From assembly GCA_032372955.1 (NCBI GenBank), contig GCA_032372955.1_4725.1: 64,000 nucleotides of DNA; one strand, written 5' to 3'. The notes under the pieces are model-generated. The model saw only the letters and a list, made by a program, of their open reading frames with translations. It had not been told where the DNA came from and did not search any database. Made by a program: the position numbers and the translations under genes. This document shows positions 626 through 63,698 of the stretch, one piece after another; position 1 is the stretch's first letter, and every line of letters starts with the position of its first letter. Source of the stretch: Escherichia coli (lineage in GTDB: Bacteria > Pseudomonadota > Gammaproteobacteria > Enterobacterales > Enterobacteriaceae).

Positions 626-670
626 CGGCATAAATGCCCTCCCTACGCTTTACGCTGTGGGAGGGTTATC
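626..670. terminator. GC-rich stem-loop between convergent genes; TTTATGCC follows on the minus-strand side
   Basis: CCCTCCC(637-643)/GGGAGGG(659-665); minus-strand reading gives stem then CATTTATGCCG. Confidence 0.5.
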
Positions 671-1024
671 TTAAGCGCTGTAGTGGATTGTGCGGTACTG
701 TTGTTTTAATGTGTTGATTGCGCTTGTATCGACAATCTTCATGGTTAGAACATCGGCGGTGTATTCCGTAGGGTCGCGATAACCATTGAGTCTCATGGTT
801 ATCCAGTGCATTGGTTCACTGCCCTCACCGAGCAGAACACGGCACAATCCATAAAAGTTACCATCGAATTCGTAGGCGCGTTCGGGTGGTATGTCTATCG
901 TAGAGACCAGTCCGGCATTTTTGAAATATTCCAGATGCATCTCAACAACGTTCCTGAAATCAAGATCGTGGATGAGGTCATCGGGGTTTGTCTTAAGAAA
1001 GTCGTTCAGGGGCGTGTTAGACAT
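671..1024 (-). CDS. hypothetical protein
   Basis: Minus-strand ORF; track start at 1036 is TTG, first ATG is at 1024; ends just after the stem-loop at 637..665. Confidence 0.45.
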   Translation of the reverse strand: MSNTPLNDFLKTNPDDLIHDLDFRNVVEMHLEYFKNAGLVSTIDIPPERAYEFDGNFYGLCRVLLGEGSEPMHWITMRLNGYRDPTEYTADVLTMKIVDTSAINTLKQQYRTIHYSA

Positions 1025-1055
1025 GACGTACCTCAATTCGATAATAGGAAGTCCT

Positions 1056-3224
1056 ATGCATTATAAAGAAAAACCTCTTTATGAATCTGTGAAGCAGGCA
1101 ATCGCTGAAGGTAAAATCATTCCCATTAAACAGGAGTATACTGGCGTAGGGACTGGACTTAACGGGCTACTGCATTATAACTCAGCACAGCGCGCTGCGA
1201 TGTTTGGTGGACATCTTAGCCAAGCGTTGGTTATCAAAGATGCGAAACCGTCCCGACTGACGACGGGGATCGAATACCAGTACGGACAGAACACGTGGTC
1301 AGTAGAGTTTCCAGTCGAATCTCGCATCATAGATATCATCCCACGTTTCCAACCGGGGCATACAGCAAACAGCATCAAAACAAACACGATGCATTACGTG
1401 CTGTATGAAAACCAAGAGGATGGTAACCGTCACGAGCTACGCTTGCTTGAAGTGCCTGAGCATCACATCATGCATCAGCAGTACGGTTTCCGTTTTCGAC
1501 CAACCAACTTGTTCCATTCCCTTCGTCGAGGCCAGATCGTACCGCGATATTCTCGTTTGATGGAAAGCCCAGCGATCAATCAAGAAACGCGCGAGTGGGG
1601 TTACGGTCGCGATTGCAAAGTGTGTTTCGGTAGCTTCTATCAATGTATCGAGGATGGTGGTGTTGCCCGTCGTGGTGTATTGAAGCATTTCACCAGTACC
1701 GGCATTGAGAAGCGAACGATCACATCAGGTAAATCACGATACCCAATCAATCTCTACGGTGATGATGAGGTATATCAAGCAATACCCGAGAACGGTGAGC
1801 GTATTCGTAAGGATGGGTTGCTTGCCGCAACACGCGAAATCGATCCTATCCTTAGCGTTGTTGACATGATGACGTGTAACCTTCAGCGTGTGGATTATGT
1901 TTACGACGATCTCACTTACGCTGAACCGAATGCGCGTGTAACGGATATCGATGTTGTCAGTGATCGACATCGTCGTTCTGGACGTCAAGCCCGCGAGCGT
2001 GCGATTATGATGGAAGAGAAGATGCGTCCTCCGTATCGTCAATTCCTGAAATACGAGAACGCAATCGGTTTGCTTTACACCCGAATTCAGGATGCTGTTC
2101 GTAAGTACGAACGTGAACGCGTTGGTACGTCGATACGTCATCATCAAACGGTGATGTGGTGGTTGAACCTGGCTGATGCTGAACACGGTATTGATATCCG
2201 CAATCCTAACGGACAGCTACGTCATGTGTTACCAACCCGCGATTACCGTAAAGAGAATCTCGATGATTGGCGTGTGACCATCACGTACACGTATGACGTT
2301 GTTCCAGGTATCGGGTTTAAATTCACCGGTATGGCGGGTGATAAATTCGTTGTAACCGACATCATGGAAGACGATGAAATGCCGGTTGACCAATGGGGTA
2401 ACGTTGCGGACTTCATGTTCGACGATAGTACGGTAATCAAAAGGATGAGTTTAAGTCGTGTTAACGCACCGTACATCAACGGCGTTGGCGATCAGATCAT
2501 GCGTGAACTGAAACCGGTGATGGATGCAGGCGATCTGGAGACCGCTTGGAACACACTGATGCGCTACTACTATATCGTCAGTCCTGAATTCGTGGAACAG
2601 GTTGTTGAAAAATACTGTATCACGGATGAGGATAAATGGGATCATTTACGGTACGTACAACGCCACGGTACGGAAGTTTATATCCCGACGGACAGTATCG
2701 CAGCCGGTTCAGAACGTATGGAGAATCTGATTCGTGAGTTCCCGTTGAAGAAAGGTCCTGTACGGTATCGTGGACGTTCTGGGCAATGGCGGACAACCAA
2801 GAACGATATTGCGATCGGCGACACGTACATCATGATGTTGGAGAAGACGGCGAACGACTGGTCAGCTGTGGGTATTCCTAAACTGCAAGCGCACGGATTA
2901 CCGTCGAAACTCAGTAATAGCGATAAATACAGTTCTCCGGGTAAAGAGCAACCGACTCGTTACTGTGGTGAATCTGAACATCGTGAAGTTACCGCCTTTG
3001 CTGGCGGATGGTTCGCAAGCGTCTTTATGGATTATGCGAACAATCCAAAACAGGTGGATAGCATCACTGAAAGCATCTACGCGACCGATAAGCCGTCAGC
3101 GATTCCTATTGCGACCAACTTCGAGAAGTATCCCATTGGCGGTAACCGTGCGTTGAGGATTCTGTATCATCAGCTGAACGTTGCTGGCGGACAAATCATC
3201 GACGCAGATGACTGCGAAAGCTAA
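1056..3224 (+). CDS. divergent multisubunit RNA polymerase beta-like subunit (C-terminal module)
   Basis: 722 codons from ATG 1056 with AGGAAG RBS (track ORF 891..3224 overlaps the divergent gene). GMAGDKFVVTDIMEDDEMPVD, IAIGDTYIMMLEKTANDWS and GESEHREVTAFAGGWF align by eye to RpoB GDKxAGRHGNKGV..EDMP, GYMYMLKLNHLVDDK and GEMEVWALEAYGA. Confidence 0.6.
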   Translation: MHYKEKPLYESVKQAIAEGKIIPIKQEYTGVGTGLNGLLHYNSAQRAAMFGGHLSQALVIKDAKPSRLTTGIEYQYGQNTWSVEFPVESRIIDIIPRFQPGHTANSIKTNTMHYVLYENQEDGNRHELRLLEVPEHHIMHQQYGFRFRPTNLFHSLRRGQIVPRYSRLMESPAINQETREWGYGRDCKVCFGSFYQCIEDGGVARRGVLKHFTSTGIEKRTITSGKSRYPINLYGDDEVYQAIPENGERIRKDGLLAATREIDPILSVVDMMTCNLQRVDYVYDDLTYAEPNARVTDIDVVSDRHRRSGRQARERAIMMEEKMRPPYRQFLKYENAIGLLYTRIQDAVRKYERERVGTSIRHHQTVMWWLNLADAEHGIDIRNPNGQLRHVLPTRDYRKENLDDWRVTITYTYDVVPGIGFKFTGMAGDKFVVTDIMEDDEMPVDQWGNVADFMFDDSTVIKRMSLSRVNAPYINGVGDQIMRELKPVMDAGDLETAWNTLMRYYYIVSPEFVEQVVEKYCITDEDKWDHLRYVQRHGTEVYIPTDSIAAGSERMENLIREFPLKKGPVRYRGRSGQWRTTKNDIAIGDTYIMMLEKTANDWSAVGIPKLQAHGLPSKLSNSDKYSSPGKEQPTRYCGESEHREVTAFAGGWFASVFMDYANNPKQVDSITESIYATDKPSAIPIATNFEKYPIGGNRALRILYHQLNVAGGQIIDADDCES

Positions 3225-3235
3225 CGAGGTATACG

Positions 3236-3646
3236 ATGGATCATTCGGATAGCGTGATAGCAATGATTACGCCACATCTGTTGCGCAACCTTCCAGCACC
3301 GAACGTCAAAACGAAGAATCATAATCGTCTTCTTGGATTATATCGAGACTGGCGGGATTCTGAAGGATTGACACGGATCGCGAACATCGATGCGGCTTAT
3401 GATGCATTTCGTGACGAACACGATGAAAACGGCAATCTTAAGCCCATTGCAGCGCAGTTACGTAAAGATGTCGGTGATGATGAAGTTCGCGATCTCCGCA
3501 TCTGCGAAGAGGTTGCTACGAAGACCGCTCGGGGGTTAATGTTGCTGGAACTCTTCGGTGAACAAGGCCGTACCGAATTGCAGTCTGAACTTATCGCTTG
3601 CTTCGAAGACACGTTGTTAGAATTTAAAGATCGTCCTCCTTTCTGA
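3236..3646 (+). CDS. hypothetical acidic protein
   Basis: 136-codon ORF, GAGG RBS, followed by stem-loop 3658..3686. Confidence 0.55.
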   Translation: MDHSDSVIAMITPHLLRNLPAPNVKTKNHNRLLGLYRDWRDSEGLTRIANIDAAYDAFRDEHDENGNLKPIAAQLRKDVGDDEVRDLRICEEVATKTARGLMLLELFGEQGRTELQSELIACFEDTLLEFKDRPPF

Positions 3647-3657
3647 TGCATATTACG

Positions 3658-3698
3658 CCTCCTCCTGCCCATGTGGTGGGAGGAGGATGTTTATGCTG
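3658..3698 (+). terminator. stem-loop plus ATGTTTATGCTG (terminator or promoter punctuation)
   Basis: CCTCCTCC(3658-3665)/GGGAGGAGG(3678-3686). Confidence 0.5.
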
Positions 3699-4145: not shown

Positions 4146-4508
4146 ATGAACTTAATTCGCAAATTAACACTGCAAGAACTGGCCCGTCCAATCGGTATTG
4201 AGGCAGCACTGCATGATGAAGATAGCAATGCGCTACAAGTCGCCGTGTTTACAGCAACCACGAACTACGCTGTTGATGTAGGTACCATTGAACCCGTACG
4301 TAGTTTTGAAGAAGATGCAACCGTTATTGATACCGTTGCTCAAAACGTCGCACAGGGTTTGGTTGTACTTGACCTGGCTGGTGATGCTGGTGAAGAAGCA
4401 CTGCGCGAAGCGATGGCTGATTACGCAGCTAACTGGGATACCACCGTCACAATGAAAACATTCGATGGTTCTGAAGAGGAAGATACGGAAGAAGACAGCG
4501 TAGAATAA
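4146..4508 (+). CDS. hypothetical acidic protein
   Basis: 120 codons, GAGGAAAAA RBS, C-terminal SEEEDTEEDSVE. Confidence 0.55.
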   Translation: MNLIRKLTLQELARPIGIEAALHDEDSNALQVAVFTATTNYAVDVGTIEPVRSFEEDATVIDTVAQNVAQGLVVLDLAGDAGEEALREAMADYAANWDTTVTMKTFDGSEEEDTEEDSVE

Positions 4509-4522
4509 TAAACACGAATAAC

Positions 4523-4561
4523 CCTCCCTCTCCCATGCGGAGGTGGGAGGGAATTATGTCG
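4523..4561 (+). terminator. stem-loop plus AATTATGTCG
   Basis: CCCTCCC(4523-4529)/GGGAGGG(4545-4551) with inner CTCC/GGAG pairing. Confidence 0.5.
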
Positions 4562-5296: not shown

Positions 5297-7303
5297 ATGA
5301 TTACAACACAGACAACCACCACGAAACGTCGTGTGAGGGCACGCGAGCTTATGCATTGGCCGGTTGATGAGGTGTTCGAATGGGCACAGCCTAATGACCG
5401 TGTGTATATCGAGATGGACGATGGCGTTCATGAATTGCGTGCACGACGCATTTTCTTTAGTTACATGCACTGGTCTGTGCATCGCATGTATCCTGAGACC
5501 CCACTAACAAAAGAGAACCTGGTTGATAAACGCAAGTTCACAGCGGGTTCATCGGTTGCGTTGCAAAGCGCAGCGTATCGTCAATGCATGTATGCTTATC
5601 CACAAGAGAATCGTGAGGTTCTCTGGAAAGCATTGTTCGATATGTTTAACAATGTGTATAACTTCTTTACGTATGCGTTGGAGGAATACGTAACAACGAT
5701 TTGCGCGGACGATTTTTATCAGATTACCGTACACCCCGAAGTTAAGAAAATCATCGCCGAAGCGGAACCCACCCGCGAAGGTATCGAAAGCGCATACAAG
5801 AAACTGACAAAGGTACTGAGCACCGATAAAACGTTACACGCAAACCCTATTGCACGTGCGGTAAGAACCGAACACGTTTCGATCGGACAGGTGCTGCAGT
5901 GTATTGGGATGCGTGGATTCTTGACTGATATTAACTCCGAGATATTCCGTGACCCAGTGATGCGGTCATACGCAGCTGGTTTGATCTCTCTTCCAGACAG
6001 CTTGAAAGAAAGTCGTTCTGCGGCAAAATCGTTGCTGTTCAACAAAGAGCAGATTAAAAAGTCTGAATATTTCGGTCGTGAACTTCAGATAGCGACAGCG
6101 GTTGTACAACGACTCCATCCTGGTGATTGTGGTAGTAAAGAGACCATCCCGATGCCAATCCGTGATGAGACCGACCTGCGTGGCTTCCACGGTCGATTCA
6201 TTATTCGTGACGACGGTTCGTTGGTAGCGATACAACCACACATGAAAGAATTGATCGGCACCACAGTGCGCATGCGCTCTGTTAACTATTGTCATCATCC
6301 CGATCCTGCTGGGGTATGTACGACGTGTTACGGTGAATTAAGTCATAACTTCGCATTGACTGATAATGTCGGCGACGGTGCAGCGCGTACCTGTTCGCAA
6401 CAGGTAACGCAGAACATTCTTTCTACCAAACACCACGATGGTTCGTCAACGGTATCCACAGCACCAATCCCACCGGAATATCAACATATCCTTCGCTACA
6501 GCCAGAACATGAACGACATCAAACTCGCACGTGAGCTGAAAGGTAAACACGTGTTGATTAAGATGAAGTTAGGTCTTGCGAACATGTTGTACGACGTAGC
6601 GGAAGCGGAAGAAATCAGTTCGCTGATACCGCAACGTCTGTTTAACATGACGCTTTGCGATATGGAGATTTACGACAGGAAAGATGAAAGCTATCGTAAG
6701 CTCAAAGTCAATTTCGATTTCTGTGGTCGTCCTGTTGTACCGAGTAAAGCGTTTATCCGGTATCTCAAACGCCATAGCTGGGAAGTGACGTCTGACGGGA
6801 TTGTGATTTTCGACTTGAAACATTGGGACAATTCACGTACGTTATTCCAGATGCCGTTAATCCACAAAAACATGATGGAATACGCAAAAGAAATCGAACG
6901 TGAATTCAAATTCGGGAAAGGTTCTTTCAGTGCCGGATTCCTCTCGGAAGACGAAGCAACACCGGAAGAAGTTGCAAACGTGCTGTACTATTGGCATCGC
7001 CTGTGTGCTCAGCGTCTGCGAATGAACCTTTCGCATCTCGACGTTATTCTCTACGCCAGCATGATTCGTTCACCGCACACGAAAGATTATCGCATGCCGA
7101 AACAGGGAACAACACGATACTTCAGTACCTTCAAGAAGAACATGAACATGCGCTCCTTGAGTATGAAGTTCGCTCACCAAGAGCAGCTGGATGCGTTCCA
7201 AAACCCGAACAGTTATATCCCAACCATGAAGCCGGATCATCCGATCGACTACATGCTGTTACCGCGTAAAGAACCTAAACCGGAGGATGTAATCACGTTA
7301 TGA
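5297..7303 (+). CDS. divergent multisubunit RNA polymerase beta-prime-like subunit (C-terminal module with bridge-helix and trigger-loop-like segments)
   Basis: 668 codons. SAAKSLLFNKEQIKKSEYFGRELQIATAVV resembles the RpoC bridge helix, RLHPGDCG the following DDCGT, VRMRSVNYCHHPDPAGVCTTCYGEL the C-terminal Cys cluster, and RTCSQQVTQNILSTKHHDGS the trigger loop GTQLTMRTFHIGG. Confidence 0.6.
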   Translation: MITTQTTTTKRRVRARELMHWPVDEVFEWAQPNDRVYIEMDDGVHELRARRIFFSYMHWSVHRMYPETPLTKENLVDKRKFTAGSSVALQSAAYRQCMYAYPQENREVLWKALFDMFNNVYNFFTYALEEYVTTICADDFYQITVHPEVKKIIAEAEPTREGIESAYKKLTKVLSTDKTLHANPIARAVRTEHVSIGQVLQCIGMRGFLTDINSEIFRDPVMRSYAAGLISLPDSLKESRSAAKSLLFNKEQIKKSEYFGRELQIATAVVQRLHPGDCGSKETIPMPIRDETDLRGFHGRFIIRDDGSLVAIQPHMKELIGTTVRMRSVNYCHHPDPAGVCTTCYGELSHNFALTDNVGDGAARTCSQQVTQNILSTKHHDGSSTVSTAPIPPEYQHILRYSQNMNDIKLARELKGKHVLIKMKLGLANMLYDVAEAEEISSLIPQRLFNMTLCDMEIYDRKDESYRKLKVNFDFCGRPVVPSKAFIRYLKRHSWEVTSDGIVIFDLKHWDNSRTLFQMPLIHKNMMEYAKEIEREFKFGKGSFSAGFLSEDEATPEEVANVLYYWHRLCAQRLRMNLSHLDVILYASMIRSPHTKDYRMPKQGTTRYFSTFKKNMNMRSLSMKFAHQEQLDAFQNPNSYIPTMKPDHPIDYMLLPRKEPKPEDVITL

Positions 7304-8874: not shown

Positions 8875-8942
8875 CGATAGCGTTTGGTGGAATCAAAAAT
8901 CAATGAGGGGCCTCGAAGCAGGCCCTTATAACCGGAGCATGT

Positions 8943-10171: not shown

Positions 10172-10188
10172 ATTAAATTGACATAAAC

Positions 10189-10244
10189 CTTCCTCCCCGC
10201 CCGTTATGGGTAGGGAGGAAGATATGCTAACTATTTTTTTTTTT
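10189..10244. terminator. bidirectional intrinsic terminator between convergent genes
   Basis: CTTCCTCCC(10189-10197)/GGGAGGAAG(10213-10221); plus side ATATGCTAAC then T11 run (10234-10244); minus side stem then TTTATGTCA. Confidence 0.65.
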
Positions 10245-11694: not shown

Positions 11695-11793
11695 TTATTC
11701 TGCCTTATTAAATAAGTACAACGCATATACGTCATACGATCTTGCAACAAATACAGCATAAAGCTCTGCATGATGTCAGGTAGAGCTTCTTAA

Positions 11794-13875
11794 TCACCAT
11801 TCCAAGAACGCAGGTCGTGGTTTAATATCGTATTCCGTGGTGTTTACGGTAACGTATTGATCGTATCCTTCCATCGCCAACGTTTCTTGCAAGTTAACAT
11901 CATCTTGCTTGTTCACAACATATTTGACACCCGTGATTTCTTCAACAAGCTGTCGACTTAACTCCATGATTTCGTGGCTACGTGTAGAAACGTTACCCTC
12001 GCTTCCCGTATCTAACATGAAACGATAAATCCGAACAGGTTGCGTTTGCCCTACACGGTCAAGACGGCTGATGGCTTGGATTTCATCGGATGAACGCCAT
12101 GGGTTGTTCAGGAAAAGACCGACATTACACATCAGCATCGGAACCCCTTCAGCTAAGCTATCAAATGTTGCGATAGCGGGACCGCTGTCAGGATCATCGC
12201 GTAAGCGAGCAAGTATCTGGTTGATGTTCTTGTTGGTCTTCCCGTAAATGGGTTCAGGTAAGAAACCCGCATCACGAAGCATGTTGTCGACGCGCTCAAC
12301 CACCTGAACGTACGACGTGAAGATCAACACTTTGGCTTCAGCGTTGTTGATGTACCCTTCGAAGTCGATGTACTCCACCATGTCGACATGACACCGAATG
12401 CGGGCTGCACCTAGAACACGGGCCAACGCTTCACCCTGAATTTTCAACCCAACGTACTTGATGACACTCTTGGCGTCTTTGAAAGCAATCCTTAAATCGG
12501 AAGGAAGAACCGGCATGATAGAACGTTTTTCAAACGCATTGCAGAACATCGCATCTTCTTTGTCTCTGACGGGATCGTAACCTTTCTGGAAACGAGCGAC
12601 GATCGATTCGTATCGAGATAGCTCTTTACGTTCTCCGTCGGTACGAATAGTCTTACGATAGTAGTCCAAGGCGTCATCAAAAATCTTTCTGTAGTGTCCC
12701 CAGTTATCCTTGTAATACTTCGCCCGATCGCGTACAAATATCGCCATGTCGTCGCGGATACTCGAGATGGTATAATCGCTGCCGTTAGGGAGCTTCACGT
12801 AAACATCCTGAACTTCCGGTCGGGTTTTACGATAAGCTTCTTTAGGTACAACATGCATCATGAACCCAAGACGATGTCTGAGGATATCGTTAGCGCGACT
12901 GCTGGTTAAACCGTAAATCGCTTTGAAGCTATCGACCACCTGTCCTTGGAACATCGGGTCGATACAACCTAAACATGGGATCATCTCAGAACCCATCTGT
13001 TTAACGGGCGTACCCGACATAAACAAGACATGCACATCCGCATTCATGGTCTGACGCATCGTCTGTACGAGATCAACCAATCGTTGGGAACGTTGGCTGT
13101 TCTTGTCGTTGAAGTTATGGCTTTCGTCAACCACGATCAACACGCGCTTCGCTGTGCGTTTATGCTTGATCATTACATCGTTTAATAAACCCATCGACTC
13201 GTAATGCAGAAAATAATACTTATCGCTTTTCTGCAACTGTGATGGTGGCATTGTATCTGACCAGAACGCGGTTTCTGTTGCGGGGTCAACGATGGCTTTG
13301 TTTACATCGGATTGCCATGCTGAACGCATGGTGTTCTTAGGACAGCAGACCACAAATACATCGACGTTCATTGCGGCGCTTAAAGCCAATGCGGTGATTG
13401 TTTTACCGGCACCAGCACCCATCGCACACACGTATCCTTTCAGTCGGTATTTAGGTACGTTACGGTTATAGATGTCGATAAACTCATCTTGATAATCGAA
13501 CAGGGAGAGCGTTAGCATTTTGTTCATGCGTGCTTTATCGAGGATTGCAGGTTGTTCGATTGTGGTATTTTGCAGCCACGTTTCCTGCAGCAGTACCTCA
13601 ATAAGGTGTTTCAGCATGCGTTTGTTACTGCGGGTATTCTTTGCTTCGATGATCGTTTCGAGAATATAAACGAAATCGGGAAGGTAAAAGTTGTGGAGAC
13701 TGAGTCCACTAGAAGAGAAATTACGAAACATATGTTTCATAAATCGGGAGGTACCCCATATTCGCTGAATGTCATCTGAAAGACGCCAGGCATCGATACC
13801 CCCGATATGCACGGTGTTGTTACTCTGATTTTTAACCGCTATTCGGTTCATTAAACGATTGATTCTATCCAACAT
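11794..13875 (-). CDS. SNF2/DEAD-like SF2 helicase
   Basis: Walker A GAGAGKT, motif II VVDESHN, motif III FMSGTP, motif VI AISRLDRVGQTQPV; ATG at 13875 preferred over GTG at 13923, which lies inside stem-loop 13911..13939. Confidence 0.6.
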   Translation of the reverse strand: MLDRINRLMNRIAVKNQSNNTVHIGGIDAWRLSDDIQRIWGTSRFMKHMFRNFSSSGLSLHNFYLPDFVYILETIIEAKNTRSNKRMLKHLIEVLLQETWLQNTTIEQPAILDKARMNKMLTLSLFDYQDEFIDIYNRNVPKYRLKGYVCAMGAGAGKTITALALSAAMNVDVFVVCCPKNTMRSAWQSDVNKAIVDPATETAFWSDTMPPSQLQKSDKYYFLHYESMGLLNDVMIKHKRTAKRVLIVVDESHNFNDKNSQRSQRLVDLVQTMRQTMNADVHVLFMSGTPVKQMGSEMIPCLGCIDPMFQGQVVDSFKAIYGLTSSRANDILRHRLGFMMHVVPKEAYRKTRPEVQDVYVKLPNGSDYTISSIRDDMAIFVRDRAKYYKDNWGHYRKIFDDALDYYRKTIRTDGERKELSRYESIVARFQKGYDPVRDKEDAMFCNAFEKRSIMPVLPSDLRIAFKDAKSVIKYVGLKIQGEALARVLGAARIRCHVDMVEYIDFEGYINNAEAKVLIFTSYVQVVERVDNMLRDAGFLPEPIYGKTNKNINQILARLRDDPDSGPAIATFDSLAEGVPMLMCNVGLFLNNPWRSSDEIQAISRLDRVGQTQPVRIYRFMLDTGSEGNVSTRSHEIMELSRQLVEEITGVKYVVNKQDDVNLQETLAMEGYDQYVTVNTTEYDIKPRPAFLEW

Positions 13876-13910: not shown

Positions 13911-13939
13911 CTCCTCCCCACACCTTTCCTGGGGAGGAG
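13911..13939. promoter_or_regulatory. GC-rich stem-loop in a divergent intergenic region
   Basis: CTCCTCCCC(13911-13919)/GGGGAGGAG(13931-13939) between the start of minus gene 11794..13875 and plus gene 14084..14770. Confidence 0.4.
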
Positions 13940-14018
13940 GCCGGGGATGTCCCTTAAAATGACGTCATTCGACAATCCATAAAATACGATGGGCATCGAA
14001 ACGGACCAACACAAATCC

Positions 14019-14042
14019 TTTCACGGCTATATTACTTACGTG
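14019..14042 (+). promoter_or_regulatory. candidate phage promoter, TATATTAC-containing conserved motif (copy 1)
   Basis: TTTCACGGCTATATTACTTACGTG, 20/20 nt core identical to 43431..43450; about 45 nt upstream of ATG 14084. Confidence 0.45.
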
Positions 14043-14083
14043 GGTAAAGAAAATTTATTAATAGATTCAAAGAGGTACGTGCG

Positions 14084-14792: not shown

Positions 14793-15275
14793 ATGAGTAT
14801 CGTTGATTTAACATTAACAGAAGTTGGTGATGGTATTGAGGTTTCGATGAAAACCTCCGACGATCGCACCGTTGTTGCTAAACTGGAAGAAACCCTGTAC
14901 GGCAATTACGTGGTGGGCGTTTCAGGGAAGGTGAGTATGTATCGCCTGGCTGGTATTTTAAGCGTCTTTGATGGGGGATTGCTGCCGTCCGACCAACTCG
15001 AGCTCCAGAACAAATTGATCGACAATGACTTCTACACGGAAAATGTGAAAGTCTTTGGTTACAGCATGATGGGTGGTGTATTTAGCGCCGCGACGAACAC
15101 GCTTAACTTCGGTACCCAACAACTGATTCAGTTCAGTATCGAAAAGGGTAAACTGAAAACGGCGTGGAAAGGCAGCGCTGCATTCACACCAACCGATCTT
15201 CTGCTTACTTCCGCAGAACAGCATTTAAAAGCAAGTAAATCGGGTCGTGCGTTTCTGGAGCAATTAAATCAATGA
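14793..15275 (+). CDS. hypothetical protein
   Basis: 160 codons, GGAG RBS. Confidence 0.5.
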   Translation: MSIVDLTLTEVGDGIEVSMKTSDDRTVVAKLEETLYGNYVVGVSGKVSMYRLAGILSVFDGGLLPSDQLELQNKLIDNDFYTENVKVFGYSMMGGVFSAATNTLNFGTQQLIQFSIEKGKLKTAWKGSAAFTPTDLLLTSAEQHLKASKSGRAFLEQLNQ

Positions 15276-15829
15276 CCCCGGCCATCTTCTTTATGTCGGA
15301 TACCCATTTTGATAGCGAGCGTACCTGGACGTATTCACGCCGTCCGTTCGCAAGCGTCGCTGATATGAACCAGCACATGCTGAAAGCCATCAACAAGCTT
15401 CCAAAGAACAGTGTGTTGTGGCATTTAGGTGATTGGGGTAAGTTCGAGTTCGTGGAAGCCATTCGTTCTGATATCCAGGTTCAATTGGTATTGGGGAATT
15501 GGGACGAAGACGCATACAAAGCAACAGGATTAAGCTTTGAAGCGTGGCGTGATAAATTGCTCGGTATGGGGTTTGCTGCGGTTTATGAACATCCGTTGGT
15601 ATTGCCGATTAGCAATGACGAATCCTACTGGCTATGCCATAAGCCCAGCGAAAGAAACCCAGGCTACTTTAATTTATTCGGTCATATTCATCGCTGTATG
15701 TTAGCGAAGGCTAACGGACTTAATGTCGGCGTTGATCAGCATTTCTATGCGCCGATTAGTTTGGACACCGTGCGTTTTTGGCGTAATGCGATAGAAAATC
15801 ATTACGACGAAGAAGTATGGATGGAGTGA
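15272..15829 (+). CDS. calcineurin-like metallophosphoesterase
   Basis: Motifs SDTHF (DxH), HLGDWG (GD), LGNWDED (GNHD/E-like), FGHIH (GHxH). Confidence 0.6.
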   Translation: MTPAIFFMSDTHFDSERTWTYSRRPFASVADMNQHMLKAINKLPKNSVLWHLGDWGKFEFVEAIRSDIQVQLVLGNWDEDAYKATGLSFEAWRDKLLGMGFAAVYEHPLVLPISNDESYWLCHKPSERNPGYFNLFGHIHRCMLAKANGLNVGVDQHFYAPISLDTVRFWRNAIENHYDEEVWME

Positions 15830-15839
15830 TCATTAACCA

Positions 15840-15866
15840 CCCTCCCTTCGGGGAGGGTTTATGCTG
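15840..15866 (+). terminator. stem-loop with UUCG tetraloop plus TTTATGCTG
   Basis: CCCTCCC(15840-15846) TTCG GGGAGGG(15851-15857) TTTATGCTG(15858-15866). Confidence 0.55.
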
Positions 15867-17264: not shown

Positions 17265-17308
17265 GAAGGTGGATGGGCGTACCCATCCACCTTCACGAGG
17301 CTATTATG
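17265..17308 (+). terminator. perfect 13-bp stem-loop followed by CTATTATGG
   Basis: GAAGGTGGATGGG(17265-17277) CGTA CCCATCCACCTTC(17282-17294). Confidence 0.5.
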
Positions 17309-17536
17309 GCGAAGAAACCAAAGAAACGTAATAAGAGATACAATCCGAATAAACGTTCGAAGTTTACGCTGGTTTACATGACGGACACTGAGTTCCAGGA
17401 AGCCAATCGACGTCATCGTTGTCTACGGGAAGCTTACCTCAATGAACATGGCTCTAAGGTTCTAACGGCTGCTGACGATGTTCCTGAAGAACAGTTTACC
17501 GATATTCAGTTATTCTTATCAAAAGGAATTCAATAA
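17306..17536 (+). CDS. small basic protein
   Basis: Track start 17273 lies inside perfect 13-bp stem 17265..17294; ATG 17306 follows ACGAGG RBS; N-terminus MAKKPKKRNKR. Confidence 0.45.
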   Translation: MAKKPKKRNKRYNPNKRSKFTLVYMTDTEFQEANRRHRCLREAYLNEHGSKVLTAADDVPEEQFTDIQLFLSKGIQ

Positions 17537-47733: not shown

Positions 47734-48483
47734 ATGCAAGAAGCACGTTATCAAGGAAGCATCATGCTTTCCTGTGGTTTTGTTATCGAACACCCAACGC
47801 TTGGTAAATTGTTCATCAAAGAAGAAATACGTAAACCAGGACAATCGAAGAACTTTTCGCCGCTTTTAGCCGCTAAAGCCTTATTAGAATCGTTCGAGGA
47901 TATTAACGTCGTCACTTATCACACAACGTTATATCAAGCTGATGGGTACAGATGGTTCGACGGATGGATTCGTGTTCATCACGATCAGATCGAGGTCGCT
48001 GTGGGAAACCTAGACGCTCTTCCGTTTACCCGTCATGATATCGATGCTGTTAAAATCGATCATAGTGACGCGGTGATCAAACTGCAGGACGATGAGTTGA
48101 TCCAAGATGTACGTCGTTTCTGGTCGAACTATCAGGATAACATTTTGATTCCGGTACCTGACGAACTCTCTAAAGTTTATGATGGACTGGTTAGCGAGAA
48201 GGGGGACGTATGGCGCACGTGCGAAGATCCCTATCGCTTCTTTACACGTAAACAAAAAGAACGTTTGATGGTACGCGGCTGGATTGAGAATCCTCTCGGC
48301 GATGTTTACCATTACGTTGATGCGGAAGCTGTGGTAAGTGACGAACGGCATAAATTTGATATTCGTGATGAACAGTTAATATGGACAGCGCAGCGTTCAG
48401 TAGAGCAAGATGATGTGATTACTATGTTCTATGATCCTGAAATCAAATTGACTCTGTTTGTAGAAGGGGATATTGACGAATGA
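47734..48483 (+). CDS. hypothetical protein
   Basis: 249 codons, GAGGAATAG RBS. Confidence 0.5.
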   Translation: MQEARYQGSIMLSCGFVIEHPTLGKLFIKEEIRKPGQSKNFSPLLAAKALLESFEDINVVTYHTTLYQADGYRWFDGWIRVHHDQIEVAVGNLDALPFTRHDIDAVKIDHSDAVIKLQDDELIQDVRRFWSNYQDNILIPVPDELSKVYDGLVSEKGDVWRTCEDPYRFFTRKQKERLMVRGWIENPLGDVYHYVDAEAVVSDERHKFDIRDEQLIWTAQRSVEQDDVITMFYDPEIKLTLFVEGDIDE

Positions 48484-49055
48484 ATTGGATTAAGGTAGTG
48501 TTGTTTATTATACTTGTTGCTGTATCTATCGGACTATTCTTTTACACACGTCGGAAAGAACAGAAACGTAAACCGAGCAGACCGTTGGTTACCGGTGTTG
48601 TAACACCCGCAAAACAGTCTGAATTACCTAAATCGCTTTATATGACGGAAGTGACTTTAGATGCATCTAAAGGCAATGAGCTTGTGCTCGAAATGTTAAT
48701 GCAGAAACATTATAAAGATGCTGTATTGACTGCCGAGTATTGGGTTGATCCTAACAGGCCAGGCAAACGCTGGCGCGCATGGTATCCTTTACATGTGCCG
48801 TGCACAAACACCTGGATTGAGTGGCCTGCATTGGTTAGCTATCGTTCAACCGATAAAGCGAACAAAGCAGCGTTCTTCTTAGACACCAATCGTTTCAAAT
48901 GGTATCCCGATAAGGTAACGAATGAGCCGGTATGGATGCCTAAGAAAGGTGGTACGTGCTTTACTGTTGGACAAGTCCTGTTAACAGATTTGGACGACCA
49001 GAACAACTTCTTTGTCATTGAAGAAGAAAAGCTTAACGATCTGATTCCTTACTAA
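48480..49055 (+). CDS. membrane-anchored protein (N-terminal TM helix)
   Basis: WIKVVLFIILVAVSIGLFFY followed by RRKEQKRK; followed by strong intrinsic terminator. Confidence 0.5.
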   Translation: MNWIKVVLFIILVAVSIGLFFYTRRKEQKRKPSRPLVTGVVTPAKQSELPKSLYMTEVTLDASKGNELVLEMLMQKHYKDAVLTAEYWVDPNRPGKRWRAWYPLHVPCTNTWIEWPALVSYRSTDKANKAAFFLDTNRFKWYPDKVTNEPVWMPKKGGTCFTVGQVLLTDLDDQNNFFVIEEEKLNDLIPY

Positions 49056-49075
49056 TCGTTCGATATAACGGTACA

Positions 49076-49134
49076 CGGTGTTCATCCCTAAAAAGGATGA
49101 ACACCGTTTTCCTATTTTTCGTTTTTTTTTTTTG
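49076..49134 (+). terminator. strong Rho-independent terminator (12-bp stem plus long T tract)
   Basis: CGGTGTTCATCC(49076-49087)/GGATGAACACCG(49095-49106) then TTTTCCTATTTTTCGTTTTTTTTTTTT. Confidence 0.75.
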
Positions 49135-49192: not shown

Positions 49193-50023
49193 ATGTATCC
49201 TGAAGCATCGTGGCAGGAAGAAGCGTTATCTAAAATAAACGCTTATCTCCAGCATCCGTTGTCTCTGTCAGACATTACGTTAACGCCAGCCTGGTATGGT
49301 GCATCAGGTCGGTTACGCCTTTCTATAGCCCCCACACCACAATCGGTTTACTACGTCGAAGACCCCGTACAGGTTTATCTTCAACGTCGCGATATTAATA
49401 AGCTCTTTATCAAACACCAACCTTTTATTGTCGTTGCTGATATGACGACGACAGCAGACTGCTTAACGCAGCTGTTTAAGAAGTATGGGTTGAAGATCGA
49501 TTTAACGATCTTTGATTCTTCAGCGTTAGCGTTACCGGTTAAATTTGAAAGCGGTGAGAAAACCATATCTGTTCCCGTTCTTTCTGACGCATCAGCATCG
49601 TGGTACGGTACGTTTCAATTCCTCGCACGAAAAGATGTAAGTGCCGATATTAGCGAACTGATTACGGTACGAGAACCGCTAACCTCGTATTATCCAGAAG
49701 ATAGTAAACAAGGGGATTTCCACACATTCAGTACATACGGCATCAAGCTAAATATACCGCCGCAAGATGCGATACGTTCGATGTCGGTTGGAGATACTCC
49801 CGAAGGATACAACGCATTCCGTTTAGCCTCATCGCTGATTTCAATGAGTTATACCTCAGCTTGGGAACTCATCACAACAGCCAGTGTCGTTTATAATGGA
49901 AAAGTTGCCGATGCGAACGATTTAGATGTTCCAATACTTCCGTCGTTCGGAAGCTCTGTTCTGGTGTTAAAACCTCATTCCGATAGCGGCGTCAGCAGCA
50001 AACTTTATTTTAGTTACGATTAA
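49193..50023 (+). CDS. hypothetical protein (possible virion/tail component by position)
   Basis: 276 codons, GAGGT RBS; first gene after terminator 49076..49134. Confidence 0.5.
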   Translation: MYPEASWQEEALSKINAYLQHPLSLSDITLTPAWYGASGRLRLSIAPTPQSVYYVEDPVQVYLQRRDINKLFIKHQPFIVVADMTTTADCLTQLFKKYGLKIDLTIFDSSALALPVKFESGEKTISVPVLSDASASWYGTFQFLARKDVSADISELITVREPLTSYYPEDSKQGDFHTFSTYGIKLNIPPQDAIRSMSVGDTPEGYNAFRLASSLISMSYTSAWELITTASVVYNGKVADANDLDVPILPSFGSSVLVLKPHSDSGVSSKLYFSYD

Positions 50024-53633: not shown

Positions 53634-53637
53634 CCGA

Positions 53638-53658
53638 TGGGGTGGTTACCACCCCATG
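53638..53658 (+). terminator. GC-rich stem-loop after the 1198-aa structural gene
   Basis: GGGGTGG(53640-53646)/CCACCCC(53650-53656). Confidence 0.45.
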
Positions 53659-53694
53659 AACTTTGGAGTCCAGCAGTATAATCGTATTATCTTC

Positions 53695-53734
53695 CCCTCT
53701 ATCTCGCTTTGTCGGGGTAGAGGGGCAATATGCG
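53695..53734 (+). promoter_or_regulatory. stem-loop plus CAATATGCG
   Basis: CCCCTCTA(53695-53702)/TAGAGGGG(53719-53726); TTTTATGCGG about 12 nt further downstream. Confidence 0.4.
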
Positions 53735-53838
53735 CGGAATTTTATGCGGTCGTCTGGACTGTTTACGCTTACCTCGAATCGCACTTTGGTTTCGAGGAGT
53801 TATATATCTTAATTTGATTGTTGGAGGAGGGTGCGCTT

Positions 53839-54372: not shown

Positions 54373-57300
54373 ATGAGTACAGCATATATAACGGTAGTTA
54401 CCGATAAAGGAGCAGAACGTATCACCGCTGCGTTACTTCCCGACGGTGAGAAACTAAAAATCACACACTTTGCCGTTGGTGATGGTAACGGCTCGATCCC
54501 AACCCCGAACGCCAGCCAAACAGCGCTTGTTCACGAAGTTTATCGTGGGGAAGTTTCTAATATCCACGCGGATGGCGATAGCACAACCAGGATTATCGTT
54601 GAGGGTATTATTCCTGCTGGTCAAGGTGGGTTCTGGGTACGTGAGATCGGTCTGTACGATGACCAAGGTGTTCTGATTGCCGTCTGCAGTGCACCAGAAA
54701 GATATAAGCCTACGCCTACCGAAGGCGCAACCAGCGTTCTTAACTGCCAGGTGCATGTCGTTGTTAGTAATACGAGTGCGATACAGCTTAAGGTGTTGGA
54801 TAACGCATTTCTTCCTGATGCAACGACTGCTACACGCGGTTTAACTATTCTAAGTAATGAAACCGATAGCGACGACGAGACAAAATCGGCCACGCCTAAA
54901 GCTGTTAATGCCGTTCGTAAACAATTGCCCGTTGTTGTAACAGATATTCGTGACCGTACCAGCGGACGAGTGGCTCTACCCGGTATGTTCGGTTATGGGG
55001 CAATACTTACCGACGTTAAGAATTTTAGCGGCACCGCTGGAGTAACAGAATTCTTAACATGGGTTAAAGCCGCAACCCCGGGGATTTACCAGGTATCACA
55101 GTCAGCTGGAGACAATAAAATAATTCCAGGAGTGACGTTTACCGGTCTTATTGAAATCAATTACATCAGCTCGTCACGGAACAGTTCTGGCCCACAAAAC
55201 GAAGAGAAGGGAATATTCTTTTTAGGCGTTAACGGTGACTTCTGGTATAACCGTTATCATGCCAGCAGTGGTGGTTCTCTCATCGGGTGGGAAAACCTGA
55301 AAGTCGATGTCGACGCACTTAAACGTCTCATCGCGCTCAAGGCAGATCTTAATAGCCCTGTGTTCACCGGTATCCCGGCAGCGCCCACCGCAGCAGTTAA
55401 CAATAGCAGTCGACAGATTGCCAACACGGAATTTGTGATGCGCGCGATCGCAGCGCTGATCGACTCGTCACCAGCGACGCTAAATACGCTTAATAAGCTG
55501 GCTCGAGCTATAGGAAGTGATCCTAATTTCGCAACGACGGTAACAAATGCGTTAGCTGGGAAGCAGCCCCTTAACGCATTACTGACCGCCTTTTCAGGTT
55601 TAGCAACATCAGCAAACAAATTCCCGTATTTTACCGATACGAATAAGGTTGATTTAGCGACGATCACACCGACAGCACGGACGTTACTACAGCAATCTAG
55701 CATTGAAAGCATGCAAGCATTGTTGCGGTTATCGGCAACACTATTCCAGCGTTTTCGAGGACAGCTCCCCACCGACGCAAATCTGAATACCTACGGTCCG
55801 GTTGAAGCGTCTGTGGGTATTTGGTCTAAACCAGTATCAACGAACGCGGACGTCGCCCACAATTTCCCTGAAGCAAATGCCGCAGGTTACATTGAAGTGC
55901 TCCCAACTGGGCAATTCGGTGGAACGCAACGTTACACTGTATGTACAGGCAATATTTACGTACGTAGTTTAACGGCAGCATGGAACGGCCAGGATGGTCC
56001 ATGGGATGATTGGCTGAAAGTGGGTAATAATGCAGCCACAGCAGCTAAACTTGCTACCGCAAGAACGATAGGTGGCGTCAGCTTCGATGGTTCTGCTAAC
56101 ATCGATCTCCCCGGTGTTAACAAAGCTGGCACCCAGAATACCAGCGGTAACGCTGCTAGTGCAACCAAGCTACAAACTGCACGTAGAATCGGTGGCGTTG
56201 CCTTTGACGGAACAGCGGATATTGCATTACCGGGTGTGAATGCGACAGGTAACCAAAACACCACGGGGAATGCGGCAACCGCCACGAAATTGAAAACCGC
56301 TGTTACGATCGGCGGTGTGAGTTTCGATGGTTCGGCCAGCATCAGTCTACCGGGTGTTAACGCCGCGGGAAACCAAGACACCAGCGGAAACGCAGGAAGC
56401 GCAACCAAAATTCAGACCGCGAGAACCATCGGGGGTGTTTCTTTTGATGGTACTGCGAACATTGATTTACCAGGCGTAAATAAAGCGGGCACGCAAAATA
56501 CCAGCGGCAACGCGGCTACAGCGACAAAGCTACAGACCGCCCGTAAAATCGGTGGTGTTGCGTTCGATGGTACGGCCGATATCGCATTACCAGGCGTTAA
56601 TGCGGTTGGCAATCAGAATACGACGGGTAACGCCGCGACAGCCACGAAATTGAAAACACCGATCACGATCGGCGGAGTTTCTTTTGATGGCTCTGCTAGC
56701 ATTAACCTACCAGGTGTCAACGCGGCAGGTAATCAAAGCACTTCCGGAAACGCTGGTTCAGCAACAAAACTTCAGACGGCGAGAACCATAGGGGGCGTGT
56801 CCTTTGATGGTACTGCCAACATTGATTTACCGGGTGTGAACAAAGCAGGTAATCAGAGTACCTCTGGTAATGCGGCTACTGCCACGAAACTCCAAACAGC
56901 ACGGAAGATTAATGGGGTCGCCTTTGACGGTACAACTGATATTAGCTTTAGCATTAACGTGCTCGCTTCCAAGGGACGGGTCACCGCTTTAGCTAATGCG
57001 ACCCAGGGCAGCAGTACGGGTATTCAGATGTATGAAGCGTACAATAACGGATACCCTACAGCCTACGGTAACATTGTTCATCTTAAAGGTGCTTCATCGG
57101 TTGGTGAAGGTGAAATCCTCATTGGGTGGTCGGGTACCTCGGGCGCGCACGCTCCAGCTTATTTACGTTCGCGTCGGGATGCAACCGATGCGAAATGGTC
57201 GGAATGGGCGCAGATCTACACATCTAAGGATAGTATCCCGGGTGTGAATACAACAGGTAACCAAAACACCACGGGGAATGCGGCAACCGCCACGAGGTTG

Positions 57301-58708: not shown

Positions 58709-59215
58709 ATGACAAAGAAACTTTGCGCGATCGTTCTTGGTATGCTGATGGTGCTTTCTCTGGGTGGGTGTGCTACGCTGGAAGGTTTACCGAACCTGGA
58801 TAAAGACCTGACGCAACTGGTGGGGTTAAAACCTGTTGAGAAGAACAGCAATCTCGCTGTGTATTCTTGCTGGGGTGCAACCCAGGAATTCGAACATTGG
58901 AAACCGAAGTTCTCAACCACTGAAATCTGGAACGATAAGGTTCTGGTTGTGGATGAAGGTAGTCAATTTACCGTTGACTCTCCGGTAACCGTTTTCGAGT
59001 CCACCCAGTTGTATACCACGGTGAAAGACTACGTTGACCTGGGGTTCAATACCGCAACCAGCGAACGCTTCTACCGCATGAACAAACCAACATTGTCTTA
59101 CGCAAGTTCAACCCTGAACTCGAACGGCGATGGTGTTGGGATGGTCTTCTTCAATTGTTCTACCGACCGTGCATTGATCGCTGATCCCAACTCCATTGAG
59201 GTTATCAGTAAGTAA
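58709..59215 (+). CDS. lipoprotein (signal peptide with lipobox-like LGGC)
   Basis: MTKKLCAIVLGMLMVLSLGGC N-terminus. Confidence 0.55.
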   Translation: MTKKLCAIVLGMLMVLSLGGCATLEGLPNLDKDLTQLVGLKPVEKNSNLAVYSCWGATQEFEHWKPKFSTTEIWNDKVLVVDEGSQFTVDSPVTVFESTQLYTTVKDYVDLGFNTATSERFYRMNKPTLSYASSTLNSNGDGVGMVFFNCSTDRALIADPNSIEVISK

Positions 59216-59223
59216 TTAAGTAC

Positions 59224-59263
59224 GCTCCTCCAACCCGTCAGGGAAGGAGGAGCTGCTATGGCG
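59224..59263 (+). terminator. stem-loop with 14-nt loop AACCCGTCAGGGAA plus GCTATGGCG
   Basis: GCTCCTCC(59224-59231)/GGAGGAGC(59246-59253). Confidence 0.5.
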
Positions 59264-59392
59264 TCATCGTATGAAATTTCCTTTTTGAGAATAGAAACGA
59301 GGTAGAAAATGGCGATAGCGCGAACTATAGGGTTCACGTCCAGCACACATCCGATATCCGCCACTTCAACCACCAACGTATAGGACAAGACC

Positions 59393-62669: not shown

Positions 62670-62690
62670 CACGTTGGAGGTGGTGTCTAC

Positions 62691-63260
62691 ATGAAAGTAA
62701 AAGACCTTTACAAAATAAAACCGCAAACGATGGGTACTGCGAGCTTGGTTCTCGTTGATGGGCGCTCCCTGGTTGATGCGCTTAATAGTTACGACAACAT
62801 CAACATTCCTGTCGGTCAACGATTAAGCATACAGCGGTTAAAAAACTATCTCGATGATGCTGGATTAGCTCCTGACACACGAAAAGAAATCGAAGAATTG
62901 GAAATCGATGAAACGAGTTCCGTTGAAGGTAATCTTCCTGATCTTACCGCTATTCACGATAAGGCTAATCAACCCGCTGTCCAAAACTTCGTTGTGGTCA
63001 TTGCAACAATCTCTCTCTTTTTGGTGACGTTAGTATACACCGGTATCTGGGCATGGCTTGCGTTCGTCGCGCAAACCAAACCGAGCATTAACCATCTGTT
63101 CGTTCTGGCTGCTTGCTGGACGATGGTGATCTGGAAATCACAAGGCATCATCAGTCGCGAACGTCGTGATTTGATGTCGGTTATCGTCGGCGATGCGCCA
63201 AGTAAAAATCGCTTTTGGGATAATATCGAAAGCCTAGGTAAAGTGATGAAGAATCGTTGA
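62691..63260 (+). CDS. membrane protein
   Basis: GGAGGTGG RBS; two or three hydrophobic helices in the C-terminal half. Confidence 0.5.
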   Translation: MKVKDLYKIKPQTMGTASLVLVDGRSLVDALNSYDNINIPVGQRLSIQRLKNYLDDAGLAPDTRKEIEELEIDETSSVEGNLPDLTAIHDKANQPAVQNFVVVIATISLFLVTLVYTGIWAWLAFVAQTKPSINHLFVLAACWTMVIWKSQGIISRERRDLMSVIVGDAPSKNRFWDNIESLGKVMKNR

Positions 63261-63269
63261 GGGTAACAC

Positions 63270-63644
63270 ATGGCTGATACCACCCCACCATGGATCGATC
63301 TGAATGTGCATCTTGTCTGGCGTTACGCTGGACGTTACACCCACGCGCACGATTTTAACGACGGTAAACTTAGTTATTACAGCATCGCTTTTACCGAAGC
63401 ACAAATACGTGCGTGGTTCGCTCAACTGAATTATCCCAATTTGATTGCAAAGAAAAGCTATTCAATGTCAAGAACACGATTAACTGTGACATTGGAGCTG
63501 TTCAATAAATCAACGTGGGTTGACGCGTACCGGCTTCGTGAGGTTATTGATAGGCAGTTCCGTAAGCATCGTCATGAAGTGCCATCAATGCCGAAGAAAG
63601 ATCCTATTGTTCCACCGGAAGATGCCATCTGGAACGAACATTAA
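63270..63644 (+). CDS. hypothetical protein
   Basis: 124 codons. Confidence 0.5.
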   Translation: MADTTPPWIDLNVHLVWRYAGRYTHAHDFNDGKLSYYSIAFTEAQIRAWFAQLNYPNLIAKKSYSMSRTRLTVTLELFNKSTWVDAYRLREVIDRQFRKHRHEVPSMPKKDPIVPPEDAIWNEH

Positions 63645-63659
63645 TAACATAACAGCATA

Positions 63660-63698
63660 AGCCCTCTCCCAACCCGTAAGGGAAGGGAGAGGGCTATG
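63660..63698. terminator. stem-loop with 14-nt loop AACCCGTAAGGGAA between convergent genes; CTATG follows
   Basis: AGCCCTCTCCC(63660-63670)/GGGAGAGGGCT(63685-63695). Confidence 0.55.

Follow-up and report, generated by a model that had tools for sequence, protein, structure and literature searches.

Our analysis identified a recurrent intergenic element, made of a GC-rich hairpin and an abutting TTATG motif, in a 64,000-nucleotide (nt) stretch of DNA deposited under Escherichia coli (GenBank assembly GCA_032372955.1, contig GCA_032372955.1_4725.1; hereafter the window). The element is the phiKZ-type conserved terminator of nucleus-forming jumbo phages, a kind already known from phages phiKZ and 201phi2-1, and its copies are very probably factor-independent (intrinsic-type) terminators for the multisubunit RNA polymerases (RNAPs) of the phage, as in phiKZ. 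The TATG that abuts the hairpin very probably belongs to this stop signal and is not the start site of the next gene.

The window is ~95% identical to Escherichia phage vB_EcoM_Goslar (Goslar), a nucleus-forming jumbo phage of the Chimalliviridae, and is collinear with it in reverse orientation (Goslar positions 156820 to 93138), with a few segments replaced. It encodes two beta-type RNAP subunits (about 1056-3224 and 5297-7303), which places it among the phages with a phiKZ-type split multisubunit RNAP; the subunit encoded at 5297-7303 shares 29.5% protein identity with phiKZ gp74, and no other phage in our collection is closer than 32%. The comparison set included the whole annotated Goslar genome, 92 kb of phiKZ, and ~41 kb each of seven other RNAP-encoding jumbo phages.

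The elements match a terminator mapped in phiKZ

Transcription termination sites (TTS) of phiKZ have been mapped by ONT-cappable-seq, and 61 of these 133 sites share the motif 5'-BCCYCCCCHWWDGGGRRGGBYTTATKYYGT-3' (Putzeys et al., 2024, microLife). Our inventory of the window includes 15 intergenic hairpins with the same GC-rich stem polarity (CCYCCCC ... GGGRRGG), C-rich on the 5' side and G-rich on the 3' side, and with (T)TATG within 0-6 nt, usually as TTATGCYGT; the window consensus is CCCTCCC-loop-GGGAGGG, then TTATG-C-Y-G-T. An earlier, sequence-only reading of this DNA had reported such hairpins followed by a TTATGC-type motif, and all the sites it cited are present. Six plus-strand hairpins are followed by the strict TTATGC(T/C)G (3691, 15859, 24592, 33076, 39909, and 46773) and six others by TATG only (4555, 10223, 22308, 53729, 59257, and 63695). 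The minus strand carries copies at 626-636 and 10178-10187, which that reading had noted for convergent gene ends, and also at 63653-63660, 22269-22272, 33035-33038, 3649-3652, and 11753-11789, the last with a stem that is not C-rich. Folding energies, which it had proposed as a check, range from -14.6 to -32.5 kcal/mol (z-scores relative to shuffled sequences between -2.0 and -6.9).

Since the published motif has a fixed length and is too rigid for stems that vary, we adopted a flexible pattern and a covariance model. At ≤3 mismatches the strict motif fits one place in the window, the element at 24570-24599, with 0 matches expected, while its flexible form occurs five times, compared with 0.00 in shuffles. 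The covariance model (R1) was seeded with only eight copies from the window and Goslar and its structure was set by hand, because aligning all copies with MAFFT gave inconsistent structures; we left an RNALfold-based classification unused, given that it misclassified sites by drawing the flanking GCATAA/TTATGC into the stems. R1 recovers 32 sites in the window and Goslar, and it matches 14 phiKZ sites at E≤0.011 in the 92 kb, the best of which (E=1e-6) lies directly behind the major head protein gene. For phiKZ 3' ends we placed T034-T076 (of the 133 TTS in Table S4 of the bioRxiv version) on the 92 kb sequence, and within this part of the table R1 matches coincide with T034, T039, T040, T057, T059, T060, and T067. 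Near-identical copies are carried by phiKZ, including double-sided ones at convergent gene pairs. In Goslar, five of the orthologous hairpins are annotated in the genome record as putative terminators. No Rfam family was matched in the window, and a generic terminator scan picked up only two of the elements in the first 20 kb. For 201phi2-1, the authors of the corresponding study state that its terminator motif A (n=59) strongly resembles the phiKZ motif (Microb Biotechnol 2024).

Within the same part of the phiKZ table, the 3' end falls on the last T of TTAT at T034, T040, T050, T059, and T064, and 1-3 nt past it at T036, T039, T051, T057, T060, T065, T067, and T068. The ends of the motif-bearing terminators are thus located 5-9 nt past the stem, which is the geometry of intrinsic termination, and the conserved TATG straddles the release point. 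Such ends could also be produced by processing, if the polymerase read through, a nuclease cut in the single-stranded UUAUGCYGU and the hairpin protected the resulting 3' end, or if the tail bound a phage RNA-binding or export protein. Termination and processing are indistinguishable from mapped 3' ends; in addition, conservation runs beyond the 3' end, something that a mechanism based solely on hairpin and U-tract would not require, and chimalliviruses encode RNA-binding proteins and have to move their mRNA out of the phage nucleus. We nevertheless consider a processing or stabilizing role unlikely, taking into account that ARNold called most of the phiKZ sites intrinsic terminators, that the distance of 5-9 nt from the stem is classical for termination, and that no specific binding motif was found for ChmC. 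Furthermore, eight 201phi2-1 terminators, with >99% efficiency in the phage data, are reported to have significantly different termination activities when placed in a reporter trap in uninfected cells.

The elements stand at gene ends

A census of Goslar showed that 50 of 56 strong intergenic elements follow the end of a gene on the same strand, the median distance between stop codon and TATG being 49.5 nt, and that none of the 56 has a pure promoter position. Convergent junctions are occupied in 12 of 19 cases (seven of them on both strands) and divergent junctions in 0 of 20 (Fisher p=1.3e-5), while 31 of the 207 tandem junctions carry an element. In the window, all three convergent junctions are occupied, and in 15 of 16 sense copies the hairpin begins 4-21 nt past the stop codon, with 21-136 nt to the next start codon. 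Location at gene ends and bidirectionality, both characteristic of the phiKZ-type terminator, are therefore found in the window and in Goslar.

The sequence-only reading had proposed that the elements combine a terminator with a late promoter, and it had pointed to the short TATG motif of phiKZ late promoters. These promoters are defined by TATG, with the G as position +1 (Yakunina 2015). On a promoter reading the abutting TATG would be the late-promoter motif of the non-virion RNAP (nvRNAP), its G would be the downstream start, and the hairpin might help to open the DNA. In line with this, the motif faces the next gene at tandem junctions of Goslar (30 sense versus 5 antisense), and promoters do occur close behind terminators in phiKZ: the late transcription start sites (TSS) P049 (94330) and P075 (145659) use a second TATG only 5-10 nt past the terminator TTAT motif, and about ten more TSS, some early, some middle, and some late, are found 20-45 nt past a terminator tail. 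Terminator-then-promoter arrangements therefore exist in phiKZ, but in them the promoter is a separate motif. We inspected the upstream 50 nt of each of P008-P126 (119 of the 149 TSS in Table S3 of the bioRxiv version), and 0 of these 119 start sites falls on the G of a hairpin-abutting TATG. Promoters would be expected upstream of genes, including in divergent regions, and it is precisely the divergent junctions of Goslar that are empty, whereas the convergent ones are often filled. At convergent ends the motif is present on both flanks of the hairpin, with no gene following that it could promote. Moreover, spacing to the start codon is loose and spacing to the stop codon tight. P119L, the late promoter of reference in phiKZ, is situated in a divergent region without a hairpin, and the genes downstream of the elements in the window include DNA-metabolism clusters and not just late structural genes. 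The bias in G-U pairs described below likewise points to a hairpin of RNA and not of DNA. Altogether, there is little probability that the abutting TATG is a late promoter, alone or as part of a terminator-promoter unit. From the earlier proposal, the terminator part is well supported, on the basis of the phiKZ motif and 3' ends, and the promoter part is not supported for the abutting TATG; a looser idea of punctuation units agrees with the about a dozen phiKZ TSS found 10-45 nt past a terminator tail, except that each has its own promoter motif.

A second TATG is also present in the window 13-14 nt past the terminator TATG in two places, 59266-59275 (CATCGTATGA, with the TATG at 59270) and 53739-53748 (TTTTATGCGG). 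The one at 59266-59275 resembles phiKZ late promoters ending in ATCGTATG (P045 and P047) and precedes structural genes, and it could be a separate late promoter.

The motif is positioned non-randomly behind hairpins

The bare hexamer TTATGC is not enriched in the window (33 copies, 35 expected); the composite GGRGG-N0-8-TTATGC, on the other hand, is present seven times versus 0.34 in 200 dinucleotide shuffles. As the hexamer is unenriched but its position behind hairpins is strongly non-random, it is the placement of the motif, and not its abundance, that carries the signal. Intergenic TATG is found 0-6 nt behind a strong hairpin in 16 of 66 cases in the window (3.4 expected) and in 50 of 214 in Goslar (11.2 expected). 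No other 4-mers occur at this distance behind strong intergenic hairpins as often as TTAT and TATG, and TTATG ranks first among all 5-mers behind hairpins in Goslar (41 versus 8.3, p=3e-16), in the window, and in phiKZ. TATG follows 13 of 28 hairpins with a purine-rich 3' arm, compared with 0 of 12 with a pyrimidine-rich one and 6 of 267 others. A broad scan behind weak hairpins was too noisy in the GC-rich relatives, and was replaced by a motif-anchored test with control heptamers: a hairpin precedes TATGCYG in 13 of 32 occurrences, and precedes control heptamers of the same composition in 1-3 of 17-41.

The same motif could be read as a set of translation signals, with GGGAGGG as a Shine-Dalgarno sequence, the ATG of TTATG as the start of a small open reading frame (ORF) or of the next gene, and the hairpin masking the ribosome-binding site. 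GGAGG does lie 4-6 nt before the ATG, the motif ATG is annotated as the start codon in a few Goslar genes, and the ATG at 3693 is in frame with the downstream gene. Most copies, in contrast, open ORFs of 3-25 codons with no common frame or peptide, which indicates a nucleic-acid signal and not a gene start, as the sequence-only reading had held. In addition, the CYGT after the ATG is conserved as nucleotides, the copies at convergent ends read into antisense sequence, and the same motif follows hairpins without GGAGG (11753-11789 and copies in RP12 and Eowyn). A translational role is accordingly extremely improbable.

The hairpin probably acts as RNA and its tail is widely conserved

The stems vary between copies while their pairing is kept. 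In 31 one-sided Goslar elements, G-U pairs account for 39 of 390 pairs in the sense folds and for 10 of 353 in the antisense folds, and the sense fold is the more stable one in 25 of 29 informative cases. This asymmetry favours an RNA hairpin over a DNA hairpin. Together with the position of the hairpins behind stop codons and with P119L, which has no hairpin, it speaks against the earlier suggestion of hairpin-dependent promoters, and a DNA-hairpin promoter of the phage N4 type is not what we find in these elements.

Between the window and Goslar, the stems and the motif are nearly unchanged and most changes fall in the loops. We observed that the central part or loop is flipped between orthologous copies at 63661-63694, 46747-46771, and 22275-22306 (for example AACCCGTAAGGGAA versus TTCCCTGCTGGGTT, or GTAAT versus CTTAC), a pattern that resembles an inversion inside the palindrome or else conversion by a copy lying in the opposite orientation. 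Flipped segments of this kind, and near-identical long copies at many Goslar loci (such as CCCTCCTCCTTCCCTTACGGGTTGGAGGAGGG at four places), would fit selfish or recombinogenic palindromic repeats, similar to repetitive extragenic palindromic (REP) or miniature inverted-repeat transposable elements (MITEs), with no role in transcription. Repeats of this type would not account for the strict placement past stop codons, for an orientation that tracks the gene strand, for a downstream motif kept across phages with differing stems, or for the coincidence of the element with RNA ends in the part of the phiKZ map covered here, and we give this explanation almost no weight. In summary, the small-ORF, REP-like repeat, and DNA-hairpin promoter readings were rejected on the grounds of ORF lengths, strict placement, and sense-strand G-U bias.

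The hairpin with TTATGCYGT is also present in Erwinia phage RAY, Klebsiella phage Eowyn, Ralstonia phage RP12, and a Vibrio phage. Because the stems in these four phages are often G-first, the downstream motif is more conserved than the polarity of the stem. The combination was not seen in the ~41-kb samples of AR9 and Aeromonas PS1, and is weak in SPN3US, all of them partial-genome samples.

Several points weigh against the terminator reading. The 3' ends from ONT-cappable-seq, resolved to about 2 nt, do not distinguish termination from processing of the 3' end, and a terminator function here would be carried over by analogy from phiKZ, whose polymerase subunit is only ~30% identical in protein. 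Classical intrinsic terminators have a longer U-tract than the UUUAU found here. Two hairpins of the same type lack the whole motif (13911) or its G (43842), one Goslar ortholog has TTCATG in place of TTATG, and five antisense-oriented copies at tandem Goslar junctions have no obvious transcript to stop. Finally, the G-U asymmetry test is somewhat selection-biased, the hairpins having been defined on the sense strand.

A possible mechanism

We propose that a GC-rich hairpin forms in the nascent RNA 4-21 nt past the stop codon, as the sequence statistics show, and that the transcript would then end 5-9 nt past the stem, at the final U of the UUAU within the conserved TTATGCYGT or 1-3 nt further on, as has been shown in phiKZ. 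At convergent ends, judging by position, a single palindromic hairpin with the motif on both flanks would stop transcription in both directions. A U-tract of this length would not suffice in a classical terminator, and for this reason the conserved TATG(CYGT) probably provides the phage polymerase with a sequence-specific pause or release signal.

It is conceivable, though less likely than not, that the elongating polymerase reads the terminator TATG through the same non-template-strand pocket under the beta-lobe that serves at late promoters, described for phiKZ GP123 (IUCrJ 2026). In that case the four bases would signal "start" on naked DNA, and "pause and release" with a nascent hairpin 5-9 nt behind them. 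Because it is part of the core enzyme, the pocket could be engaged again at TATG during elongation, with U-1 as the RNA 3' end; many phiKZ ends map to this position. Bacteria have a similar process in sigma-dependent or core-recognition-element pausing. The Goslar homologue of GP123 has 29% identity overall and keeps F151, K158, K190, and H331, with F replacing Y406. Were the idea true, it would explain how a short UUAU tract suffices, why phiKZ 3' ends pile up at TTAT/G, and why TTATGCYGT is kept behind unrelated stems in Escherichia, Pseudomonas, Erwinia, Klebsiella, Ralstonia, and Vibrio phages. In the literature searched we found no paper linking the terminator TATG to the late-promoter pocket.

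For annotation, the elements indicate where transcription units end in a phage of the Goslar type, and the model can be used for other chimalliviruses; in Goslar itself only a few are annotated, as generic predictions. The motif is common to phages of at least six host genera, whose own terminators look different, which shows that termination is tuned to the phage-encoded polymerases. A TATG common to late promoters and terminators is also a testable handle on pausing and release by sigma-less split polymerases.

Probable terminators in the window

Bidirectional terminators separate convergent genes in three places. The element at 626-670 (minus strand; R1 E=0.008) lies between a plus-strand gene ending at 605 and a minus-strand gene ending at 671, and its hairpin (637-665, -17.9 kcal/mol) is flanked by GGGAGGG-CATTTATGCCG on the minus strand (636 to 626) and by GGGAGGG-TTATC on the plus strand (666-670). 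At 10178-10230 (both strands), a hairpin at 10189-10221 (-27.5 kcal/mol) stands between gene ends at 10171 and 10243, with ATATGCTAA on the plus side and GGTTTATGTCAA on the minus side. The third, at 63652-63701 (both strands), has a hairpin at 63661-63694 (-32.5 kcal/mol, z -6.9) between gene ends at 63644 and 63710, with CTTATGCTGT (minus) and CTATGTTA (plus) on its flanks, and its Goslar ortholog is annotated as a putative terminator.

On the plus strand, three elements come with a mirror copy on the minus strand. Behind gene 3236-3646, the element at 3646-3698 has a hairpin at 3658-3686 (-23.9 kcal/mol) followed by ATGTTTATGCTG (TTATGCTG at 3691-3698), and its weaker mirror copy reads TAATATGCAT (3652 to 3649). 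The element at 22265-22314, behind gene 21951-22265, includes a long hairpin with a 2x2 internal loop (22275-22306, -26.6 kcal/mol), then TTATGTTC, with AATATGCTGT as mirror copy. Behind gene 32391-33023, the element at 33031-33083 has a hairpin at 33041-33074 (-26.3 kcal/mol), then GTTATGCTG, with AATATGCTTT as mirror copy.

Further elements are found at 15839-15866 behind gene 15272-15829 (ACCCTCCC-TTCG-GGGAGGGT, then TTATGCTG; R1 E=5e-7), at 24570-24599 behind gene 24009-24557 (AGCCTCCC-GTAAT-GGGAGGCT, then TTTATGCTG; E=8e-7), and at 39889-39916 behind gene 39455-39883 (CCCTCCC-GGCAT-GGGAGGG, then CTTATGCCG; E=5e-6), all on the plus strand. The remaining plus-strand elements are those at 4522-4561 behind gene 4146-4508 (hairpin 4522-4551, -21.8 kcal/mol, then AATTATGTCG), at 46747-46781 behind the endolysin-like gene 46235-46732 (hairpin 46747-46771, -23.2 kcal/mol, z -6.2, R1 E=0.002, then TTTATGCTGT), and at 59222-59263 behind gene 58709-59215 (a long hairpin, -25.4 kcal/mol, then CTATGGCG), together with a terminator-like hairpin at 53694-53736 (hairpin 53694-53725, -22.3 kcal/mol, then CAATATGCGCG), which is followed by the second TATG noted above.

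Variants of the element were also detected. Between two minus-strand genes, the terminator at 11753-11789 (minus strand, R1 E=0.15) has the non-C-rich stem AAGCTCT...AGAGCTT followed by TTATGCTGT, and its Goslar ortholog is annotated as a putative terminator. Behind gene 43522-43839, the plus-strand variant at 43842-43873 (AGGCCCCCC-TAAAT-GGGGGGCCT, R1 E=0.008) continues with TTATACCG, a TTAT without the G. A C-first hairpin without TATG, followed by TTTTTATC, lies on the minus strand at 13911-13939, in a divergent intergenic region 36 nt upstream of the start codon of a DEAD/DEAH helicase gene. Its Goslar counterpart is identical and carries a terminator annotation. The hairpin may serve as an attenuator in the 5' leader, or may stop antisense transcripts. 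Inside the minus-strand helicase gene, a hairpin followed by TTATGCTTGA is present in antisense orientation (13142-13165, plus strand), and could be either chance or an antisense terminator.

Other signals and segments of the window

Hairpins of the opposite polarity, with a G-rich 5' arm and a C-rich 3' arm, are located at 8906-8927, 23331-23356, 23933-23956, 25953-25972, and 53637-53657. They begin 3-31 nt past stop codons and none of them is followed by TATG; they may be a different class of terminator or RNA-stabilizing 3' hairpins. A classical-looking terminator, unlike the TTATG class, was identified at 49075-49107 between genes 48480-49055 and 49193-50023, where a hairpin of 13-15 bp is followed by TTTCCTATTTTTCG and a T12 run (to about 49135). 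A very stable 13-bp hairpin at 17265-17294 (GAAGGTGGATGGG-CGTA-CCCATCCACCTTC, -25.4 kcal/mol) overlaps the ribosome-binding region and start codon of gene 17273-17536 and may control its translation.

The conserved motif TTTCACGGCTATATTACTTA(C/G)GTG is present on the plus strand at 14003-14045 and 43416-43458, 56-81 nt upstream of gene starts. Goslar has eight intergenic copies, all in sense orientation and 39-131 nt before a gene, one of them before the nuclear shell protein gene. The motif resembles mapped early (virion RNAP) promoters of phiKZ such as ..TTTAAGATCTATATTACTAA.., and these sites are probably early promoters of the window phage.

Three segments are unaligned with Goslar or only 65-82% identical to it (20566-21279, 22696-23357, and 55635-57237), and they correspond to part of an exoribonuclease-like gene, to a 200-amino-acid gene absent from Goslar (22714-23316), and to an internally repetitive tail-fibre gene. 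It is likely that the two phages differ in function or host range in these segments. In an otherwise dense genome, the intergenic stretches 26454-26870, 44938-45321, and 45694-45929 are unusually long (236-417 nt), and they probably hold small unannotated genes or RNAs.

Comparison with known systems

Phage N4 offers a precedent for hairpins as start signals: its virion RNAP, a single-subunit enzyme, recognizes promoters that form DNA hairpins ahead of early genes. The window elements are similar to them in that a short GC-rich inverted repeat lies near a transcription signal, but differ in following genes, in tolerating G-U pairs on the sense strand only, and, going by phiKZ, in marking RNA 3' ends.

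With the phiKZ late promoter the elements share the TATG tetranucleotide, while the upstream hairpin is missing from that promoter (P119L). Among the phiKZ ends examined, the hairpin-abutting TATG is a mapped 3' end and not a 5' end, and the elements are missing from divergent promoter regions.

Bacterial intrinsic terminators likewise have a GC-rich hairpin in the nascent RNA, a 3' end 5-9 nt past the stem, and bidirectional action at convergent genes. They differ from the window elements in their tail: instead of the classical run of about 6-8 U right after the hairpin, the tails here are T1-3-A-T-G, with a U-tract of only UUUAU followed by a conserved GCYGT that classical terminators lack.

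The closest match is the phiKZ motif itself, which has the same C-rich 5' arm and G-rich 3' arm (CCYCCCC/GGGRRGG), a loop of 4-5 nt, and TTATKYYGT, is located behind gene ends, acts in both directions at convergent pairs, and belongs to a genome with split multisubunit RNAPs. The two phages differ in host (Pseudomonas for phiKZ, E. coli here) and in genome GC content (37% versus about 46% here), and many window copies are longer than the phiKZ form, with a 2x2 internal loop (CCCTCCTCC-TT-CCC-loop-GGG-TT-GGAGGAGGG). In 201phi2-1, motif A is reported by its authors to be sometimes extended by a second motif into a longer hairpin, similar to the long form found here.

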